A stretch of DNA of 64,000 nt, taken from Verrucomicrobiota bacterium (lineage in GTDB: Bacteria; Verrucomicrobiota; Verrucomicrobiia; Opitutales; Cerasicoccaceae). Shown piece by piece: positions 1-10,043 of the stretch. The translations under genes were made by a program, and so were the position numbers. The stretch lies in contig JBCBUK010000012.1 in NCBI GenBank assembly GCA_039818205.1, forward strand, positions 1 through 64,000. Direction: 5' to 3'. Below the pieces are notes generated by a model. That model saw only the letters and a list, made by a program, of their open reading frames with translations. It ran no database searches and was not told the DNA's origin. Each line of letters begins with the position of its first letter. The stretch's first letter is position 1.

Positions 1-462
1 CGAATGAGCACTCTCCAATCGATCCAATAACGTCAGGAAATGCTGAAAAGCGTCCTCATTGCCCCCAACGAAGACTAAACGTCCTGTGAATTGAGTTGCT
101 CCTTCCACCGCTCTTTTGCTCATAGCATCAGTCTTCCGGATATCATGGGTGGATGCTCTGTAATTTCGGGAGCCGATCTTCTTTAGACCATTACTTGCAG
201 AAAATATCGCCAGCGGATCATAGCTTTTGGCGAGGGCATATGGATTGAGCCTCATGCAAAGTATGTTTTCACCCGCGATTTTTCTGTTCGCTTGAAGATT
301 GGCCAGCGCGTCTAGTGATTCAAGTAATTGCTTTTTGACGCGAACGCGCGCCTCTTCAAAAGAAGCGACAAATGGCTCCTTGAAAGGCGACTTTGGCGGT
401 TCAAATTGACGCCTTAGCTCTTCGCCCTTGGCCAAAATCGGCCTCCTATCTTGCTTTGCCAT
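1..462 (-). CDS. N-terminal part of a probable S8 (subtilisin-like) peptidase, IetS/IteS-like; runs off the left edge
   Basis: Not in the ORF track. Hand translation from ATG at 462 is open to base 1 (MAKQDRRPILAKGEEL...MRLNPYALAKSYDPLAIF...GRLVFV). It starts 6 bp after the AAA ATPase stop, and the LAKSYxP segment resembles IetS-family N-termini. The catalytic domain is not visible. Confidence 0.7.
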   Translation of the reverse strand, partial: MAKQDRRPILAKGEELRRQFEPPKSPFKEPFVASFEEARVRVKKQLLESLDALANLQANRKIAGENILCMRLNPYALAKSYDPLAIFSASNGLKKIGSRNYRASTHDIRKTDAMSKRAVEGATQFTGRLVFVGGNEDAFQHFLTLLDRLESAHS

Positions 463-468
463 GAGATA

Positions 469-1587
469 TTATTTCTTGAGATGATGCTGTATCGTGGTTG
501 AGCTTTTACCAAAAAGCAACGCTAACTGCCTAACTGTCATATTGGTTGAGGCTCTTACGCTTTTGATTAAGGCACTTGAATTTCTTTTGTGCGATAGATC
601 ATTGAAATGAACCATCAGCTCACTACACAGGCATTCAACTAATGGAGTTTCGGCTATCAAATGCCTTCGAATCGCGGCATTTACATATAATTCGATATCG
701 GCGAAACTACGCTCCTCCAGAAGAACAGACAGTCCCTCAAGAATACCTTTGGGAACTTTTTCGCCAGTTGGAAGAATTAATCGCTGAAGTAACTGAACCC
801 TCTCCTTTGACTCCGGCAAAGGCAGCTCGATTTTTAGGTCAAACCTCCTATCAATGGCAGGGTCGACCAACTCATAATGATTAGTCGCAGCAATCAGCAA
901 TGAATGGTTCGGCCAATCCTCAAGCTCCTTCAGTAAGACATTTACGATTCGCTTTAGTTCGCCAACCTCACTGGTATCATCTCGACGCTTCGCAATTGCG
1001 TCAAATTCATCCAGAAGCAACACGCATGGATTATTCCTAGCGTAGTTTAAACTTCGGCGGAGGTTGTCACCGGTTCGTCCTAGCAAGCTGGAAATGCTTG
1101 TCGCCAAATCAAGAGTCGCCAATGGCAGATGAAGGGTTTCAGCGATCCATCTGGCAAGGAGCGTCTTACCAGTGCCAGGCTTGCCTTTAAGTAGAAGCGT
1201 TTGGGTCGGCCTAATCCCTCTGGCCAGCAGACGCTTGGAGTTTTGCCTTTCGGTAAGAACTTGCGTGACCATGTCCTCTATGGCTGGGCATAGGATTGGC
1301 TCACTGATTTCGAAACTGTTCTCTATTTTCAATAAAGACAGGCCTCCTTCGGCATCAGCAGGAGGGGATTCGAGGGCGCTGCGGCGCAGCCCGTTAGTCC
1401 CGCTCATTCGACCTGAAATCAGCCCACTAAGGCGCTCAGCTAACTCGGGGTTTTCATCCTTGCAGGAACGTATCAAACTCAGGCATACAAGCTCGACTTT
1501 CCTGTTATCACCATTCAAGGAAGCTTCGACCAACTTGGGGAGAAAATCGCTCAGGGTTTTTGTTCTATTATTTTTTACTTTTTCCAT
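469..1587 (-). CDS. AAA+ ATPase with C-terminal HTH, IetA/IteA-like
   Basis: Walker A GKPGTGKT, Walker B LLLDEFD, AATN, Arg finger DPAIDRRFD, GELKRIVNVLL; C-terminal MTVRQLALLFGKSSTTIQHHL HTH-like segment. Confidence 0.85.
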   Translation of the reverse strand: MEKVKNNRTKTLSDFLPKLVEASLNGDNRKVELVCLSLIRSCKDENPELAERLSGLISGRMSGTNGLRRSALESPPADAEGGLSLLKIENSFEISEPILCPAIEDMVTQVLTERQNSKRLLARGIRPTQTLLLKGKPGTGKTLLARWIAETLHLPLATLDLATSISSLLGRTGDNLRRSLNYARNNPCVLLLDEFDAIAKRRDDTSEVGELKRIVNVLLKELEDWPNHSLLIAATNHYELVDPAIDRRFDLKIELPLPESKERVQLLQRLILPTGEKVPKGILEGLSVLLEERSFADIELYVNAAIRRHLIAETPLVECLCSELMVHFNDLSHKRNSSALIKSVRASTNMTVRQLALLFGKSSTTIQHHLKK

Positions 1588-1670
1588 TTATAGAACAAAA
1601 AATCGCTAAAACATTGATATATGTCAATTTTTTTGTTCTATATATTTCAATATTCGTAAAATATAGAACA
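1561..1670. promoter_or_regulatory. Two identical-geometry operator-like inverted repeats TGTTCTA-N23-TAGAACA, with a minus-strand TTGACA between them
   Basis: TGTTCTA at 1561 and 1634; TAGAACA at 1591 and 1664; tgtcaa at 1622-1627; very AT-rich. Confidence 0.6.
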
Positions 1671-1674
1671 GAAT

Positions 1675-1935
1675 CTATTTCGCCGGATGCGTCATCTCAT
1701 GGACCTTTTGGAGCTGGCGGATGCTGACATTCGTGTAAATCTGTGTGGTCGACAGGTTCGCATGTCCCAATAGCTTCTGGATATGCCTGATATCCGCCCC
1801 ATTTTCGAGCATGAGGGTTGCGCAGGTATGGCGCAGAAGGTGGCATCCGCCCGATTTCGCGACCCCGGAATCCTTGACATACTGGATCACCAGGCGGCTT
1901 AGGTAGTCCGGGGCCATAGCGTCACCGTACCCTGC
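1675..1935 (-). pseudogene. C-terminal fragment of a tyrosine recombinase/integrase
   Basis: GGCHLLRHTCATLMLENGADIRHIQKLLGHANLSTTQIYT (HxxR, LGH, catalytic Y). Only ~85 codons; the N-terminal domains are absent. Confidence 0.85.
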
Positions 1936-2495
1936 GGATCCGTGGATGAGATCATCGACCCTAATCGATCGTAGGATGTATACTGACGAATATCATTGTG
2001 GGTCTTCACTCCGTCACCATCAAGGTCTACAATAGTGCTTGTTCGTCGATTACGACTATCATATCCATGCCACGTTGTGTTTCCATTTGCATCGATTATA
2101 CTGACCAAATTACCCCGTCCATCGTAATATCGAGTCTCCTCCGCAAGGACCAAATCGGCAGCCCCGTCGGGCCGGGAAGTAGCTGGATACTTTGTTTTTC
2201 TAAGCCGGTTCCGAAAATCGTATTCGTAAGAAGTTTCAAAGCCTCGAGCATCGGTTACTTTACTAAGATTGCTATTCGCATCATATTCCATTGTAGTCAC
2301 TTCACTCTTAGTAGCATCTTCAAAAACCCGCGTCTCGGAAGCTGTTCGGCCTTCCGAATCTCGAGTATACTCAGTGACTAACGGTTTCACCCAAGTTGGG
2401 TCATCGTAACCTTCATCAAGATTCATTACCGTCTTCTTACTCAGAAACCCCGGGTAGGATTGATCGCCATACTCATAATCAACGATCTGCAGCGG
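1899..2495 (-). pseudogene. Internal fragment of an Rhs/YD-repeat protein
   Basis: Repeated YD motifs (YDANSNL, YDFRNRL, YDGRGNL, YDSRNRR, YDRLGS). The frame stays open upstream of the track ATG (LQIVDYEYGDQSYPGFLSKKTV) to ~2495. No Rhs core end or toxin tip. Confidence 0.8.
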
Positions 2496-2583
2496 AGGAT
2501 TTGGCTAAAGCGGTCCGGCTTGGAATCGGATGTCTGCATCCCGCTGATGTAGACCGAGAGTTCGAATCTCTCCGCCTAGACCA
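2492..2583 (+). ncRNA. tRNA-like element, Pro(UGG) anticodon with long variable arm; 5' acceptor strand missing or irregular
   Basis: TCCGG-CTTGGAA-TCGGA anticodon arm (2514-2530); GTCTGCATC/GATGTAGAC variable stem; GAGAG-TTCGAAT-CTCTC T-arm; ends CGCCTAG-A-CCA. Confidence 0.7.
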
Positions 2584-2602
2584 TTTCTCACAATCTATTC
2601 CG

Positions 2603-2675
2603 CGGGGTGTCGTTCAATCAGCAGAGTAACTGTGAAAAATACAGATCGTTGAACGTTCGAGCTCTTCCTCCCCCT
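2603..2675 (+). ncRNA. Degenerate tRNA-like element (pseudo-tRNA), anticodon undetermined
   Basis: Cloverleaf spacing with GGGGTG/CTCCCC acceptor, GTTC..GAGT D-stem, CTGT/ACAG anticodon stem, GTTCGA T-loop; several mismatches, no CCA. Confidence 0.5.
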
Positions 2676-2687
2676 ATCAAATCTCTT

Positions 2688-2759
2688 AGGGACGTAGTTC
2701 AACGAACAGAACACCTCGCTTCTAACGAGAAGATGAAGGTTTGATTCCTTCCGTCCCTA
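2688..2759 (+). tRNA. tRNA-Arg(UCU)-like, non-canonical
   Basis: Perfect AGGGACG/CGTCCCT acceptor; GTTC/GAAC D-stem; CTCG-CTTCTAA-CGAG anticodon arm; GAAGG-TTTGATT-CCTTC T-arm. Lacks the D-loop GG, T-loop C and encoded CCA. Confidence 0.7.
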
Positions 2760-2791
2760 CCCATCCTAAAAACAAACCAACCTAACCTGCC

Positions 2792-3448
2792 ATGAATCAA
2801 GTGACCTCCAAACAAAACACGGTCCGTGATACCATTCAGGTAACGGCAAAGTGCCAAACCACCCTCCTACTAGACAATCTTTGGATGCCCATCCGAGTAA
2901 TTCAAGCAGGGCGGGTGTTTTACTATCTTTTCCGGGACCGAGTGACTTCCCTGGACTTGGATCTAAATCCATACAATCGAGACCAGTGGCTCCATGCCCA
3001 GGCCGATCTAGTCGCATCGGCAAGCTATCCAATGATCTCAAGCGCCCGAGACAAATGGGCCGTTCCAACGATTGCGATCGTCAACCATCCATTCAAGAGG
3101 GATCGAAGAGTATCAAAGAAAGTGTGCCTCGACGAACTCTTGGAACTCTACGACTATACCTGCCAAATCTGCTTGCAGCAGTTCAACCGAAGCGCATTTG
3201 ATCCGAGAGAGATCTTCAATCGAGACCACGTGCTCCCTCGGTCGAAGGGCGGCCCGGACGATGACTTCAATATCGTCCTAGCCTGTAAGCAATGCAACTC
3301 GCAGAAGGGATCTGAGTATCCCTACTACAATGCCAACGGAGAGGAAATTCGAGCCAAGCTTCGAACCACCTTCTCTGATCTGGCAATCGGATCGGCCGGT
3401 ATCCGCAAGGAATGGCGACCATTCCTTTTCAAAGAAGCAGTAGCCTAG
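2792..3448 (+). CDS. HNH endonuclease (McrA-like, Zn-binding)
   Basis: CQIC...RDHVLPRSKGG...NIVLACKQCNSQKG; N-terminal LLLDNLWMPIRVI segment. Confidence 0.9.
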   Translation: MNQVTSKQNTVRDTIQVTAKCQTTLLLDNLWMPIRVIQAGRVFYYLFRDRVTSLDLDLNPYNRDQWLHAQADLVASASYPMISSARDKWAVPTIAIVNHPFKRDRRVSKKVCLDELLELYDYTCQICLQQFNRSAFDPREIFNRDHVLPRSKGGPDDDFNIVLACKQCNSQKGSEYPYYNANGEEIRAKLRTTFSDLAIGSAGIRKEWRPFLFKEAVA

Positions 3449-3451
3449 ACT

Positions 3452-3518
3452 TGTCCATTGGGGAATTGTGTTCCGGGCACGGCGCAAGCCGTTCACGGAG
3501 CATGATCCCCACCGGACA
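3452..3518 (+). ncRNA. Long imperfect hairpin capped by a GCAA tetraloop
   Basis: Nested helices TGTCC/GGACA, TGGGGA/TCCCCA, TGTGTTCCG/CGGAGCATG, ACGGC-GCAA-GCCGT. Confidence 0.5.
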
Positions 3519-3652
3519 CTTTCTAGAACCGCTAGAGCTAGATCAGATTCAGCGTGTTGATATTTCCGCAACGATAACCTTGAAACAAGCTAAACCAGAA
3601 ACACCGGAATTAGTTAAGCAGCCACTAGGCTACCAAAACGGCTTACCAATCG

Positions 3653-5371
3653 CTAGCCACCCAACGGCGGCATCCCGAGAGCATTACGAACTTTGTTGAT
3701 CATATTTCGCCGCAGTCGGTCGTCTTCGAGCTCCATTGATTCGACAATGCCCAGAGTCATCTCCGCATTGCTGGTTATCATTTGATTGACCAAGCCGTCG
3801 ATAGATTCATTTCTCATGCTGCCTTCAGGAATCGACAGCGCCAAGTTCAAGGCATGAGCGGGATCATCCGAAACATACTCCGACGCAGCAACCTGCAACG
3901 CGATTGAATACGAGTCGTCGGACTCCAAGTTTTCAATCCATTCGAGGGCAGACTCCGAATCTTGCTTGATCCAGTTCGACGTAATCTCGCCCACAAGCAC
4001 TCTTCGGACTCGTGGATCGTCGATCGAGTCATAAAACTGCGATGCTCTTACAGGATCCTGTGCTGGCATATTCACGGCAGCGCCATACATCATTGCGTAC
4101 TTGAACGGTTGCTCATCGGCCAATTCATTCGCATAGTCCAAGGCGGCAAATGCATCCTCACGGGACCAAGCCTCTACGACTGACCAAACAGCCTCCTGTC
4201 TGGACGATTCACTTTCCAACGTGTAAGCCCACTCCATCGCAGCATAAGGGTCCTTTCTGGCCAATGAATCACCGATCAACCCCGATACCTGCGCATGCAG
4301 TTCAGCATCCGAGATGGTCGCTAGACGGTTCTTCGCCTCTTCAGGCTTGTTGTAAGCCAACCGATGCTCCAAAGCCTGCAGATGATTTCTCGTATCCAAA
4401 CTTTGCGGCTGTTCGCCAAGCCATTGCTTTGCCCGATCAATATCGTCGACATCCCAATTCAGAACTAGGCTTTGTAATGCTTCGACTCGAGTTGCTCCGG
4501 CTGGCATCGTTTCAACTACTTGAATCGCCGCCTCTGGGTTCACCTCTGCAAGCATATCAACCATCGCAACCGTTAGCCGAGTCCGGTCCGCACCAATCAA
4601 GTTTTCACTAATCCAGTTGGAAGCTAGCTCGCCATCCCGACGGGATAACTCTTTTACCAATACATACTTCAAGAGATCTGATTCCGCCGGCGTTCCTTCT
4701 GATTCCATGTATAGCATGAAGCTATCAATGTCGCGACGGGCCCAATCATGCATTACATCTTTCAGGATGTTGCTGTTTTCGAGCGTATTTGGAAGGCTGT
4801 ACCAATGCGCGATCGCCTCTTCCGGCTGGTTCGATGCCCAGGCGCGAATCATGCCCTCCTTAATTGCGAAATAATCACTTGGGGCGAGTGCATTCTCCGC
4901 AGACGCAAGTGCGCTTCGAGGATCAATGCTCGCCCAATGGGCGAAGAAGTGATTCAGCGTTTCATGTCGATGGTCATGATTCTCCAACGAGGTTAGCACA
5001 GCCATCGCGCCTTGAGGATCAACTTCAGCCCAACGCTCGAGCAAGGCGTTCACGCGGTCCAGATCGATTCGCTCCTGCTGCAGCTGCTGCAAAAGGTAGG
5101 CGTTGAACTGCCCCGGCTCGAGGTTTGCCACCTCAAGCAGTGCATGTACGCGTTTCTGGTAAGGGGATAGCTCCCCATTACCAAATTCGCCCATGCCAGT
5201 ATCGATGACACTCACGTCGTAATCCGTCGCTCGATCAACATCCAGTTGGCCCGCTCCAGAGAACGCTCTGCCGGATGATTCGTTGGCCTGATCGCGAGGC
5301 AACAGTAGACCTATCGCGAATCCAATCGACAAGAACCCAGCGCAGGATCCGATGACTTTTTTACTCACCAT
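3653..5371 (-). CDS. Membrane-anchored/secreted alpha-helical repeat protein
   Basis: N-terminal hydrophobic segment; many W-x3-DP-x2-A-x2-W-like repeats (WAEVDPQGA, WASIDPRSA, WASNQPEEA, ARKDPYAAMEW). Confidence 0.75.
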   Translation of the reverse strand: MVSKKVIGSCAGFLSIGFAIGLLLPRDQANESSGRAFSGAGQLDVDRATDYDVSVIDTGMGEFGNGELSPYQKRVHALLEVANLEPGQFNAYLLQQLQQERIDLDRVNALLERWAEVDPQGAMAVLTSLENHDHRHETLNHFFAHWASIDPRSALASAENALAPSDYFAIKEGMIRAWASNQPEEAIAHWYSLPNTLENSNILKDVMHDWARRDIDSFMLYMESEGTPAESDLLKYVLVKELSRRDGELASNWISENLIGADRTRLTVAMVDMLAEVNPEAAIQVVETMPAGATRVEALQSLVLNWDVDDIDRAKQWLGEQPQSLDTRNHLQALEHRLAYNKPEEAKNRLATISDAELHAQVSGLIGDSLARKDPYAAMEWAYTLESESSRQEAVWSVVEAWSREDAFAALDYANELADEQPFKYAMMYGAAVNMPAQDPVRASQFYDSIDDPRVRRVLVGEITSNWIKQDSESALEWIENLESDDSYSIALQVAASEYVSDDPAHALNLALSIPEGSMRNESIDGLVNQMITSNAEMTLGIVESMELEDDRLRRNMINKVRNALGMPPLGG

Positions 5372-5426
5372 GGTGATTACCTCCGAGCAATTTCAATTAC
5401 ATTGAAAACGTTCACTCTAGAACTTC

Positions 5427-6665
5427 CTAGTAAGTAACGTTCGTTGTGGGGTAGAACGTACCACCGTGAGGTGCTAGATCATGGCGAAAGCACTTGTGGT
5501 AGGTGCCCCACGGCCGATACACAGTACCCCACCACATATTGGAGACATTCCAACTGGTTGTTTGAGGATTGTTCGGGTCTGCCGGAACAAAGCAGGTGTC
5601 CCGCACTCCATTGCGCTGGAATGTGTTTTTGTAAACGATGTTGTGATCACCGACCGGGTCATGAACGACACTCCAAACAGTCAAAAACGCGTGCCACTGG
5701 GGATTTGCGTTGATCATTCCTGCATCGAGGTTTGCGGTATTGCTCTCAACAAGATTGTAACCGCCGTCGTCCGTGTGGAAGCTGATGTCCTGGCTAAAGT
5801 TGTTCCGTATAACGACATTATACTTGGATGCTTGGGTCTGGATCGATACATGACGGATTTTTCCCGCCGTGTTGTTGTAAACCAGATTCGACTCGCCGAA
5901 GATCCGAATATAAGCACTTCCTCCAGCGCCCTTGTTGTAGGCTCCTTCGACATCGGTGTCACGCAAGGTGCAATGACGTGAGCTCATGGTAATTGGCGTA
6001 TGCCCAGCATTCGTTACTTTGCTGCCTTGAATCCAGCAATTCTGATTACTCGGCCCAGCAAAGTTGATCATGTTGACAATAGTATCGTCGCGCCCACCAG
6101 TAATGTCCTCCTGGTTTTCCATCAGGTAGTCCTGTGGCATCAGGCCGGTATTTGTGTAGTACTCGATCTCCATATTCACAATACCGACATCACGTTCATT
6201 ATAGGCATTAAATACCGTCGTTCCAGTAGTACTTGTGCGCCGGCAACGGATTTTAGTGCTATTTTTTCCAGATCCTAATAGAACCACACCATTCTTAAAA
6301 TCAACAAAGCGCCACTTGAAATTAAAAGTAGAATTGGAGATTTTTACCGATCGAAGATTCCCCTGAAAATGGGCATCATTTATCTTAGTCTGAAGGATAT
6401 CGATATCAGACTGAGTCAGAACTTCCTCGCCACTTGCGGTAATCTGGGAATACCAGGGAATCCCACCGACACGGCCCGCATTCTTCCATTCATGCATCTG
6501 ATCATAATTGCGGGAGCTATCATTGGCATTTTGATTAATTATAGCGGTATCAAAGGTGACACCAGGGTCACCAACTCGGCGTGCTTGGGTAGTTAGAAGG
6601 GATGACCCAACGGCCAATACGACAAGCAAGCCGATTCTCGGCTGGGGTATTTTTAGTTTCTTCAT
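5427..6665 (-). CDS. Secreted right-handed beta-helix (pectin lyase-like fold) protein
   Basis: Signal peptide; Asn-ladder-type repeats (NCWIQGS, SNLVYNN, YNVVIRNN, YNLVESN, HNIVYKN). Confidence 0.65.
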   Translation of the reverse strand: MKKLKIPQPRIGLLVVLAVGSSLLTTQARRVGDPGVTFDTAIINQNANDSSRNYDQMHEWKNAGRVGGIPWYSQITASGEEVLTQSDIDILQTKINDAHFQGNLRSVKISNSTFNFKWRFVDFKNGVVLLGSGKNSTKIRCRRTSTTGTTVFNAYNERDVGIVNMEIEYYTNTGLMPQDYLMENQEDITGGRDDTIVNMINFAGPSNQNCWIQGSKVTNAGHTPITMSSRHCTLRDTDVEGAYNKGAGGSAYIRIFGESNLVYNNTAGKIRHVSIQTQASKYNVVIRNNFSQDISFHTDDGGYNLVESNTANLDAGMINANPQWHAFLTVWSVVHDPVGDHNIVYKNTFQRNGVRDTCFVPADPNNPQTTSWNVSNMWWGTVYRPWGTYHKCFRHDLAPHGGTFYPTTNVTY

Positions 6666-7061
6666 AGTTTAAGGGAATAAGCAATCAACGACCTGCAACA
6701 ACAAAGCCAGAACTGAACGTAAGGCTCACATTTGCATTCGCGATTGGGGTAAATGTAATATCAGGGAAGACGCCTACATTTTCCATATTCGCCCCACTAA
6801 TTTCAATAAAATCATTACGCAAAGCAGGTTTATTATCACGCAATCCTTATAGCATTAAAAACGAAAACCCAACCTAATCACAATTAATAAAATTAAGCAT
6901 AGTTAACAATTACTACCATCAATAATCGTCTTCTCTCAAGCATAGCCAACGACATCGCTTTACCCTCTCCAAACATTTGCGCGAGCATTGCGTCCATTTT
7001 GCGCAAATCAGTGCTACCGCAGATCCGATTTGTCGTTAGACTATCTAATGGTCTCACGAAC

Positions 7062-10043
7062 ATGATCAGAATACCCCAGATACTTTTCCTAAGCATTTGC
7101 TTAGCATTGGCCGCCCATTCAATTCGATCCCAAGCAGCATCCACACCCGCGGCCCTGGAGGAAGGGATCTTCCTCCCAGACAAGATTTCGGGCCCTTCCG
7201 CAGAATACTACACCCCCTATTCCGGGAATATGGCGGCGTATCTTTCCCATCCATCAACGGATGCGTTAGTCTACACGAAGATTTCTGGCCCCAACTGGCT
7301 GAAGATTCACTCCGATGGAATCCTCGCGGGTGCGCCGACGGAGGATGACGCCGGAACCAACAGCTTCCTGGTCCGTGTTCAGAATCAAAATGGTGACTTT
7401 GACGAGATGACATTCGAACTCTCGGTGATTGAACCAGAGCTAACGTTGATCGACATCCTTGCCGATGATTTTTCCAACGGCTCTGCGGCGCTTGGCAACC
7501 TCAACCAATGGAGCGATCTTTCCGGTCCCGAAGACAAAGAATACAACTTAAATAACTCGTCGCAATTGATCTTACACGACCGGATCTCAGACGAAAAAGG
7601 CAATGGCCCTCACGACGGCTTCTTTGACACATTACAAGGCTCGTTACCCAACCCCATCGATCTCACGCAGGAAGGGAGTTGGCTGGAGCTCAGCATGGAG
7701 TTCGATGTGTTCTCGGGAAATTATTTTGGTTCCACGATTGCCGACGTAACCGACGGGCTACGCATTTCGCTGGTGGATTCCAATAAGCCCACAGACTCGG
7801 GATGGGGCTTCTTTGTCGGAACCGGTAGTCAATCCATCCACTCGTACCGCGAGATGAGGGGGCTGGTCTCTTCTCAAGCAAAGATTGGCGATGCGCTCAC
7901 CAACGTGAATATTTCCGAGAATGCTCCGCTAAAACGGTTGAAGATTCGCCTTACCCGAGTCGCAAACGGAATCGAGCTGAGCGGTCACCTCGACGAACAC
8001 TCGCTAGCAACCGTTCTAAGCGACAACAATGCGCTTCTCGAGAACCGCATCAACACCCTGGCGATATCCGTCGCGAAATACGACCACGGCGTCCGCGTTG
8101 ACAACGTCGAGGTTCGAGCGTTTAGCCAAAACCGAAACACCTCCGATCTATGGAAGCAGTATGTTGCCGCGAAGGTGGACGAAACCGAGAACACGCTCCC
8201 TAATTTCTCCTATGCAGGCTATCGACACGGAGCCGAACCGCCCCCAACAGTTGCCTGGCCGGTGTATGACGTAACAGCCTATGGTGCGGTTGCCAACGAT
8301 GGACTATCAGACAAAAAAGCGATTCGCAATGCGATCGCCCAGGCAGAGGCAAATGGATCAGGTATCATCTTCTTTCCGCCAGGCCGATTCGATATCAATT
8401 CACCCGGCGAATCAACCCCTTGGGTGAATGATCCGATCATAATCGAGGGTAGTCACATCGTCTTTCGTGGCAGCGGAAGCGGCGAAGGTGGTACCGGGCT
8501 ATTCGCCGAACGCCACATGAACCTTAGTGATGAGAACAAGCTTTGGTCTGCGCCGCGGATAATTCAGTTCAAAGGCTTTGGCGATCGACCAGGGGTTCAA
8601 ACGGCAGTGGTCGGCAATTCCGAAAGAGAGACTTATTCGGTAACGGTCGCGAATGCTAATAGTTTCGAAGCGAACGATTGGATCATTCTTCAGCGCCAAG
8701 ATGCATCCAGCGATGCCGTGGCCGAGGCAGTGGCTCCTTACACCGTCGATCCATCCTGGACCAAACTCATAAACGAGGGCGTCCGAGTCGCGGAGATCCA
8801 TCAAATTGCAACGATAGATGGCAACATCATCACCTTCGTCGAGCCGATTCATTCCGACATTTCGGCATCGGGAAACTGGTCCGTTATCCTGTTTGATCCA
8901 TTGGTAGAGGTCGGCGTCGAGGACATTGCGTTTGTTGGCAATTGGCTCGACACCTTCATCCATCATGATGCTTCGGATCGCGATTCAAGCGGTCGCATCA
9001 TTTCGGATGATAGTGCGTGGAGCGCGCTTTCTTTCTCAAACTGCGTCAATGGCTGGATTCGACGTTGCCGCTTCAAAGATTGGTGCGCCTGTGTCAGCTT
9101 TGGATGGTGTGCAAACATGACCGCCATCGACTTAACGATTGAAGGGAACAAGGGGCACAATGCACTTACGTTTGCGAACAGCACCCATTGCTTGGCAGCA
9201 ATGGTAAAGGACTACGCCAACCATCACCACTCAAGCGGCGTCGCAAACCTCTCAAACGCTTGCGTCTTCTGGCGTTCGGAATACAGTCCGCATTCGTGCT
9301 TTGAATCCCACGCATCGCAGCCAAGGAATACGCTTTTCGATCAGGTATCCGGAGGCCTTATCTACGGCAGGTCAGGCGGCGCTCGCGACAACAAACCCAA
9401 TCACATGGAAAACATGATACTGTGGAACTTCAGCAACACCGGAGATGGAGAAGGCGATCCATTCCAGTTTTTTCGGACGAACGGACTACAGTTTATTAGG
9501 CCCTATGTTATCGGACATCATGGCCATCCGCAGGCCTTCCAAACCAGCATGCTCGCAGGCCTTGAATCAAATGGTGCACCTGTTTATCCAGAGTCTCTTT
9601 ACAATGCGCAATTGAAGGTTCGTACTGGGATCTCCTATCCCTACGTAATCTTTCGGGAATGGGCGACCGGACACGAACTAGATGCACCGCAGAGCGAGCT
9701 TCAACGCGACCCAGACTACGATGGCCGCGTAAACCTAGTCGAGTATGCGACCGGCGGAGACCCCACCAAGGGGTCTATTGCTGATACCACCCTAACCTAT
9801 TCCATCAGCGATCAAAACGAAGGCACAATCGTCAGCTTCACCTATCAACGGCTACGCGATGCGGAGCAACGCGGATTAAACTACTCCATCGAGTATTCTG
9901 ATTCGCTTGAATCCGCAAGCTGGACCTCTGCGTTGGTTCAAGAGGTCGATGTTGTCCCAGTCGACGATTCCTATGAGTATGTCGAATGTCAGCTCCCTGC
10001 ATCTTCTCGAGTCTTCGTTCGACTAAGAATCGAACTAGAGTAA
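7062..10043 (+). CDS. Secreted multidomain protein: Ig-like domain + beta-helix (Pectate_lyase_3/DUF4955-like) + C-terminal extra domain
   Basis: Signal peptide; KISGPNWL..G.L.G.P Ig motif; LPNFSYAGY, YDVTAYGAVANDGLSD, IIFFPPGRF, FESHASQPRNTLFD; start set at ATG 7062. Confidence 0.75.
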   Translation: MIRIPQILFLSICLALAAHSIRSQAASTPAALEEGIFLPDKISGPSAEYYTPYSGNMAAYLSHPSTDALVYTKISGPNWLKIHSDGILAGAPTEDDAGTNSFLVRVQNQNGDFDEMTFELSVIEPELTLIDILADDFSNGSAALGNLNQWSDLSGPEDKEYNLNNSSQLILHDRISDEKGNGPHDGFFDTLQGSLPNPIDLTQEGSWLELSMEFDVFSGNYFGSTIADVTDGLRISLVDSNKPTDSGWGFFVGTGSQSIHSYREMRGLVSSQAKIGDALTNVNISENAPLKRLKIRLTRVANGIELSGHLDEHSLATVLSDNNALLENRINTLAISVAKYDHGVRVDNVEVRAFSQNRNTSDLWKQYVAAKVDETENTLPNFSYAGYRHGAEPPPTVAWPVYDVTAYGAVANDGLSDKKAIRNAIAQAEANGSGIIFFPPGRFDINSPGESTPWVNDPIIIEGSHIVFRGSGSGEGGTGLFAERHMNLSDENKLWSAPRIIQFKGFGDRPGVQTAVVGNSERETYSVTVANANSFEANDWIILQRQDASSDAVAEAVAPYTVDPSWTKLINEGVRVAEIHQIATIDGNIITFVEPIHSDISASGNWSVILFDPLVEVGVEDIAFVGNWLDTFIHHDASDRDSSGRIISDDSAWSALSFSNCVNGWIRRCRFKDWCACVSFGWCANMTAIDLTIEGNKGHNALTFANSTHCLAAMVKDYANHHHSSGVANLSNACVFWRSEYSPHSCFESHASQPRNTLFDQVSGGLIYGRSGGARDNKPNHMENMILWNFSNTGDGEGDPFQFFRTNGLQFIRPYVIGHHGHPQAFQTSMLAGLESNGAPVYPESLYNAQLKVRTGISYPYVIFREWATGHELDAPQSELQRDPDYDGRVNLVEYATGGDPTKGSIADTTLTYSISDQNEGTIVSFTYQRLRDAEQRGLNYSIEYSDSLESASWTSALVQEVDVVPVDDSYEYVECQLPASSRVFVRLRIELE

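Follow-up and report, generated by a model that had tools for sequence, protein, structure and literature searches.

Near one end of a contig from a Verrucomicrobiota bacterium, three tRNA-like elements, an HNH endonuclease gene and a stable hairpin follow one another closely on the plus strand. The initial annotation read them as one cassette coupling a nuclease to tRNA mimics, and the question addressed here is what these parts are and how they came to lie together. The window analyzed is the whole 64,000-nucleotide stretch (contig C12:1-64000) of a 4.85 Mb genome (G000) that is 99.97% complete. Its relevant features are listed below.

1-1673, at the contig end: ietAS defence pair, with ietA (PADLOC E 5e-84) and the start of ietS
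1675..1920, minus strand: C-terminal fragment of a tyrosine recombinase (XerD-like), matching PF00589 positions 113-169 only (E 2e-16)
1899..2504, minus strand: internal fragment of an RHS/YD-repeat gene (PF05593), open frame 2504-1902
2501..2583, plus strand: element 1, the last 83 nt of a tRNA-Pro(UGG) with a class II body, assigned by alignment and pair counts (76% over 91 nt with the intact L058 copy, E 2e-6). Parts: D-loop remnant; anticodon arm 2514-2530 with UGG at 2521-2523 and A37; 9-bp variable arm 2532-2554; T arm 2556-2572; acceptor 3' strand 2573-2579 (G72), A73 and CCA
2603..2675, plus strand: element 2, a decayed tRNA gene (pseudogene) with mismatched acceptor and T stems, a damaged anticodon loop and no CCA
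2688..2759, plus strand: element 3, tRNA-Arg(UCU), a 7/5 cloverleaf with A20, C35 and A73 (RF00005, 64.6 bits, E 1.2e-12)
2792..3448, plus strand: intact gene for a 218-aa Zn-binding HNH endonuclease that has a beta domain at its N terminus (PF01844, E 4e-12)
3452..3518, plus strand: 67-nt GNRA-capped hairpin with a GCAA loop (-41.9 kcal/mol, z -6.5, 0/200 shuffles)
3440-3448 and 3625-3633, no strand assigned: 9-bp inverted repeat that encloses the hairpin and to which an alternative Logan junction maps

Genomic setting

The locus had been described as lying beside a defence island. The IetA match is genuine, but gene fragments intervene between the defence genes and the tRNA-like elements. 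A palindrome at 1631-1673 lies upstream of ietA. The reading frames show the XerD-like recombinase fragment fused to the RHS fragment, whose open frame and repeat homology extend to about position 2500, in place of the 5' end of the tRNA-Pro; five alignments to long RHS proteins each start from residue 2. A second close copy of the RHS fragment is absent from the rest of the genome. DNA of the tRNA-HNH segment matched none of the 15 other genomes of the family (present in 1 of 16), and the right flank matched in one of five congeners, only about 10 kb away. No empty allele for HNH homing was identified, and the congeners were without the flank.

Three tRNA-derived elements

Element 1 is a class II tRNA-Pro whose 5' end has been replaced by the RHS fragment. 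It lacks the 5' acceptor and D strands, roughly the first 16 nucleotides of the tRNA being missing, and its acceptor stem cannot form today. Compared with 225 tRNAs it scored 81.5 (best of 100 shuffles, 49.5), and it had no Rfam match. The element had been placed at about 2492-2583, where it does lie, but its start moves to about 2501, since 2492-2500 is RHS-coding DNA of the minus strand. The expected 5' acceptor strand was absent from window positions 1-2800, and 39 + 11 fuzzy matches to the 5' strand across the genome included none in a tRNA context on inspection. A Logan contig from a possible source run covers 1663-3448 at a depth of 22.6 and crosses the RHS-tRNA junction, so a second assembler also gives this junction. 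Sequencing runs X2 and X3 yielded only short matches, from other organisms.

Element 2 was reported by ARAGORN as a "possible pseudogene" at a relaxed threshold only and had no Rfam match; its score against the 225 tRNAs was 57 (best of 100 shuffles, 43). Element 3 was the only tRNA called by ARAGORN at default settings in the 64-kb window and scored 67 in the same comparison (best of 100 shuffles, 48). It retains A20, C35 and A73, which are arginine identity bases. The A19/U56 combination in element 3 is a compensatory pair that is present in other array tRNAs too: among 84 array tRNAs parsed, 5 had U56, all with A19, and 65 had G19-C56, while position 19 could not be assigned in 13 and position 56 was a different base in 1. 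Judged from its sequence, element 3 is probably a functional tRNA-Arg(UCU). Housekeeping genes for Arg(TCT) and Pro(TGG) are found on contigs C7 and C2, respectively, which makes the tRNA types in the window supernumerary.

These assignments change the earlier picture of the elements. ARAGORN and Rfam, the detection proposed there, recovered element 3, while elements 1 and 2 had no Rfam match though both scored above all 100 shuffles. The statement that all three break canonical rules does not apply to element 3, a normal 7/5 cloverleaf with a compensatory A19-U56 pair, and the 8/4 or 9/3 geometry expected of irregular allo-tRNAs occurs in none of the three. What had been called three tRNA mimics are one truncated tRNA, one that has decayed and one normal.

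A family of tRNA-Pro(UGG) with a long variable arm

Long variable arms are the mark of Ser, Leu, Tyr and Sec tRNAs, and the finding at this locus matters because the broken copy reveals a conserved tRNA type that runs against this textbook split. Intact 97-98-nt tRNA-Pro(UGG) genes with a long variable arm were found in two Opitutales tRNA arrays (G005 and G085), with a tRNA-Arg next in both. The type occurs in both bacterial chromosomal arrays and large phages, with intact copies at L056:4908-5004, L058:5107-5204 and L217:11735-11828, and elsewhere it was seen only inside multi-tRNA clusters. A pattern without acceptor positions matched 3 of 331 genomes of the order, and a stricter pattern matched 1 of 401 genomes of the phylum, this genome. 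Viral contigs gave first 6 and later 16 matches, 15 of which were parsed (L202 was left out), 8 of these with paired stems. Searches with intact tRNA-Pro by blastn against INPHARED phages and plasmids returned short T-arm matches at most.

G72 and A73, positions outside the search patterns, were present in 11/11 paired matches and in 0/33 unpaired chance matches. Across a family alignment of 8 distinct sequences, pairing holds in 97.6% of cells. Both partners vary in 23 of the 28 pairs, among them all 8 of the variable arm, although the sequences are few and related to one another and also served to draw the structure. None of 500 shuffles reached this covariation, and slid controls paired at 38-46%.

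Bacterial proline tRNAs are recognized by C1-G72, A73, G35 and G36, and the main serine determinant is the variable arm (PMC9976931). The element 1 family shares with class II tRNA-Ser the Ser-type D arm and long variable arm, and with class I tRNA-Pro(UGG) the full proline set, from which the window copy differs in having no C1. Phage tRNA-Ser genes have the same D arm as the family, but G1-C72 and G73. The family also differs from the housekeeping tRNA-Pro(UGG) of the host in having A37 rather than G37. The combination of a Ser-type body with proline determinants is not described in the portion of PMC9976931 available to us. Allo-tRNAs likewise have a long variable arm and occur in irregular tRNA clusters near mobile or defence genes, but they are defined by 8/4 or 9/3 geometry (PMC5389517, available portion), whereas the family alignment is 7/5 and the discriminator in all 11 paired matches is A73, not G73 or U73. 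The accessible part of the PMC5389517 supplement has no allo-tRNA entry with a UGG anticodon, and a class II tRNA-Pro is likewise not described in the available portions of PMC7609411 and of the PMC5389517 and PMC8421152 supplements. No description of a class II tRNA-Pro or a natural UGG serine tRNA was found in the literature searched, whose coverage excludes most subscription journals.

Because the family has the proline identity bases, as far as these are set out in the accessible text of PMC9976931, proline charging is likeliest and serine mischarging is possible. Intact members would thus most likely be charged with proline and read CCA/CCG codons on a serine-type body.

The HNH endonuclease and tRNA arrays

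The HNH gene starts 32 nt past position 2759 and is intact, as the initial annotation had it. Residues H146, N160, N169 and C124 are invariant and C127, C165 and C168 are at least 90% conserved among 42 sequences. The predicted model has a pLDDT of 88, and its Foldseek search against the PDB gave nothing at E <= 0.001, the best match being the HNH nickase 4h9d. Comparison with IscB/HEARO (OMEGA) gave an HNH-only match without a RuvC part, an IscB model score of 35 bits against a cut-off of 175, and no Rfam RNA.

Protein collections contained five close homologs (61-91% identity); P0002, P0003 and P0161 (the 90% cluster of P0002) are known here as proteins alone. The clade occurs in 2 of 401 genomes of the order and 1 of 341 of the phylum. 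Homolog loci were found on four genome contigs, two of them relevant, and on five metagenome contigs, which are distant; no close HNH locus was found in viral contigs with A1. In a tree of 31 sequences, the window clade stands apart from the chromosomal paralog and from cyanobacterial and mycobacterial proteins with a support of 1.0. On sequence grounds, the protein is assigned to a tRNA-array-associated architecture and to a phage-like subclade. The chromosomal paralog (C8:53393-53986) has the same architecture, is 32% identical and was matched in 29 of 41 related genomes; tRNAs were found at none of its 8 loci scanned.

HNH genes have been linked to tRNA arrays (PMC8421152; PMC5966550, available portions of both), and several homologs follow this pattern. 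A complete jumbo phage (G721) carries an HNH of the same clade (29% identical, E 4e-55), located 2.4 kb before an array of 33 tRNAs, one of them a class II tRNA-Pro. The HNH of the delta plasmid of Nostoc PCC 7120, which aligns over residues 23-178 of the window protein (24%, E 7e-4), is encoded directly upstream of 24 tRNAs; under another tag, it fits all8564 of PMC8421152 as far as that source is available. A Mycobacterium plasmid homolog lies inside a 28-tRNA array, and tRNA arrays were present at 3 of the 4 plasmid HNH matches inspected (28 records in all). The 3' half of element 2 can be fitted to the N-terminal extension of P0161 with 33 of 42 nt agreeing (maximum of 1000 shuffles, 32; of 190 control stretches, 31), which suggests that this homolog has a tRNA just upstream. 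The statement that HNH genes accompany tRNA arrays thus holds at the family level (G721, Nostoc and Mycobacterium), as does the option of a selfish or mobile unit.

The link is loose, since the 63%-identical homologs L011 and L012 have neither upstream tRNA-like elements nor an array and a tRNA was found within 3 kb at 0 of 25 loci of the freshwater-phage branch. Most HNH homolog loci are without flanking tRNAs, although L011 has a canonical tRNA about 60 nt past the HNH stop. Among phage records with a class II tRNA-Pro, one of five had the HNH; the four others are all incomplete. Of the homolog flanks, some adjoin tRNA arrays, but tRNAs are missing upstream of L011 and L012 and within 3 kb at 25/25 freshwater-phage loci, and the hairpin is not conserved.

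The nearest described system is the Anabaena/Nostoc PCC 7120 trn operon with all8564 (PMC8421152, available portion), with which the window shares supernumerary tRNAs on one strand, including pseudogenes, and a neighboring HNH of the same two-domain architecture. In contrast, the window retains three tRNA remnants only, its HNH lies downstream rather than upstream and in a separate phage-like clade, no promoter was identified in the window, and the tRNA-Pro of Nostoc has the usual length of 77 nt. Supernumerary tRNAs, a patchy distribution and an adjacent HNH homologous to array-linked HNHs are also features of tRNA L-arrays; the long co-oriented run is absent here (three elements, one canonical), and the locus is read as a remnant. 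Mycobacterial and phage array units (PMC5966550, available portion) come close in spacing, with the HNH start 35 nt after a tRNA in L219 and 32 nt here. The jumbo phage shares the HNH clade and the tRNA-Pro type, whereas the window copy is truncated, chromosomal and flanked by RHS and integrase fragments.

The 3' hairpin and inverted repeat

The 67-nt GNRA hairpin reported just past the HNH stop is present, and none of 1200 sampled post-stop 72-mers of the genome folds as well. It belongs to no Rfam family. Relatives in 151 genomes amounted to four weak 22-38-nt matches, the best match in 215 loci had an E of 0.56, and the hairpin showed no match to the region conserved before slipin genes. 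Unrelated stable stems (z below -4) lie past the stop in 3 of 9 HNH homologs. Reading the hairpin as a U-tract terminator was rejected, as no U tract follows. It may serve as a stem that stabilizes 3' ends between convergent genes, or it may belong to a small inverted-repeat element at 3440-3633.

In the Logan graph, the 1663-3448 contig meets a branch at each end, and a fold-back contig connects 3561-3624 with the reverse of 3448-3419 at the 9-bp inverted repeat. Depth is 22.6 on the 1663-3448 contig and 33.2 on the right flank. Candidate readings of the branching and fold-back at 1663 and 3419-3633 are an inversion, a strain mixture or an amplification chimera.

Slipin-linked tRNA arrays in Opitutales

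A second, partly decayed tRNA array is present in the same genome (C16:12700-14300, L015:1700-3300) with a slipin-like gene behind it. The last element of this array is a circularly permuted tRNA-like RNA (L015:3116-3207) that scored 32 bits with the YrlA model, below the gathering score of 69; this YrlA-like RNA occurs despite the lack of a TROVE/Ro60 or RtcB match in the genome. The possibility that the window locus is a piece split off the C16 array was rejected, as the two have no DNA similarity and differ in Arg type.

Slipin homologs were found in 16 of 301 genomes of the order, including this one. Among 15 slipin regions fetched, 11 had at least 3 tRNAs and 9 at least 8 at a relaxed threshold. 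The Opitutales operon (L055-L065) consists of a tRNA array, the slipin gene and then a 120-aa HlpB-like HNH (3 loci), a 330-aa protein or RtcB (L063, L064). Slipin and sometimes RtcB neighbors are shared with Nostoc trn arrays, and the operon parallels the Anabaena TrcR regulon as described in the accessible part of PMC10272220. In 13 loci of Opitutales (L015, L055-L066), conserved non-coding motifs lie between the tRNA array and the slipin gene, within the 520 nt before the latter; they had no Rfam match in the loci scanned and are a candidate for an undescribed structured RNA. The last tRNAs before the slipin leader (L058:5386-5612; L059-L065) have near-identical bodies and many anticodons across genomes, one of them UCA, which suggests anticodon-free tRNA-like elements. 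In the phage array (L217:8550-19250), several normally short tRNAs (Thr, Ile, Asn, Met and Val) measured 86-92 nt by ARAGORN.

Origin of the locus

Positions 2501-3448 are probably a decapitated remnant of a phage-like mobile tRNA array with its HNH gene, acquired horizontally. This reading draws together the observed identities of the parts, the RHS-tRNA junction, the covariation within the tRNA-Pro family and the patchy distribution. The order Pro, X, Arg, HNH is known from the window locus alone, the HNH past the slipin gene in the arrays of congeners is of a different, 120-aa type, and the hairpin is not accounted for, which counts against the reading.

The 3' end of an array of presumably phage-like origin would have entered the chromosome together with the HNH gene. 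A later rearrangement would then have cut inside the class II tRNA-Pro and joined RHS and integrase fragments to it, as the junction and the missing 5' strand indicate, removing the upstream tRNAs and, presumably, the promoter. By analogy, intact arrays would be co-transcribed and processed into extra tRNAs for translational stress or phage infection, and the HNH would be a DNA nuclease that probably aids array spread by nicking or homing. At present, only the tRNA-Arg(UCU) and the HNH could still work, given read-through transcription.

An unlikely alternative is a small mobile HNH unit homing to sites beside tRNA genes, with few flanking tRNAs and never in a long array, for which SegB of T4 provides a precedent (PMC8421152, available portion). 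The canonical tRNA past the L011 stop, the tRNA that P0161 probably has just upstream and the sporadic occurrence of a subfamily well separated from the paralog would fit such a unit, but the restriction of class II tRNA-Pro elsewhere to multi-tRNA clusters argues against it, and the cut in element 1 means that the original unit was longer. It is very improbable that the parts form a ribonucleoprotein or decoy system beside a defence island, with tRNA mimics and the 3' hairpin serving as scaffold, guide or protection for the HNH. Although the same-strand spacing is tight, the catalytic and Zn residues are intact, ietAS is nearby and the hairpin was more stable than all 1200 controls, the elements are explained as truncated, decayed and normal tRNAs, hairpin relatives are absent from the 151 genomes and 215 loci, there is no RuvC part, and promoter-like sites were at chance level (3 vs. 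3.0 +/- 1.7). The idea of one transcript that ties a nuclease to tRNA mimics, decoys or a guide also fails on homologs without upstream tRNAs and an unconserved hairpin. For the RNA-repair systems named in the initial annotation (RtcB, Ro60/TROVE and Y RNAs), there were 0 matches to TROVE/Ro60 or RtcB in G000 and no YrlA-type RNA (RF02553) match in window positions 1-8000, with a weak one on C16; a nuclease-RNA complex is unsupported.

The chance that the RHS-tRNA junction arose as a chimera during amplification or assembly, with a longer intact array in the real genome, is slight. A location near a contig end, the Logan branches and fold-back junction and the unequal depth would agree with a chimera; against it, one contig crosses the junction at a depth of 22.6, and the rest of the RHS gene and the tRNA 5' end were not found in a nearly complete genome.

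Significance

In itself the locus is an ordinary remnant, and mobile tRNA arrays with an HNH are already known; what is new is the family of class II tRNA-Pro. A dual identity of this tRNA(UGG) is a tentative and rather doubtful idea: the serine-type variable arm might permit partial charging by SerRS, which would give phages and stress-induced bacterial arrays a natural Pro-to-Ser mistranslator that can be switched, or else a tRNA-Pro that evades host anticodon nucleases and the G37-methylation requirement. A further lead from the window is a slipin-linked array operon of Opitutales, parallel to the cyanobacterial TrcR regulon. The importance of the locus is carried by the class II tRNA-Pro family and not by the broken copy, and the intact copies in L056, L058 and L217 make charging by ProRS vs. 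SerRS directly testable.
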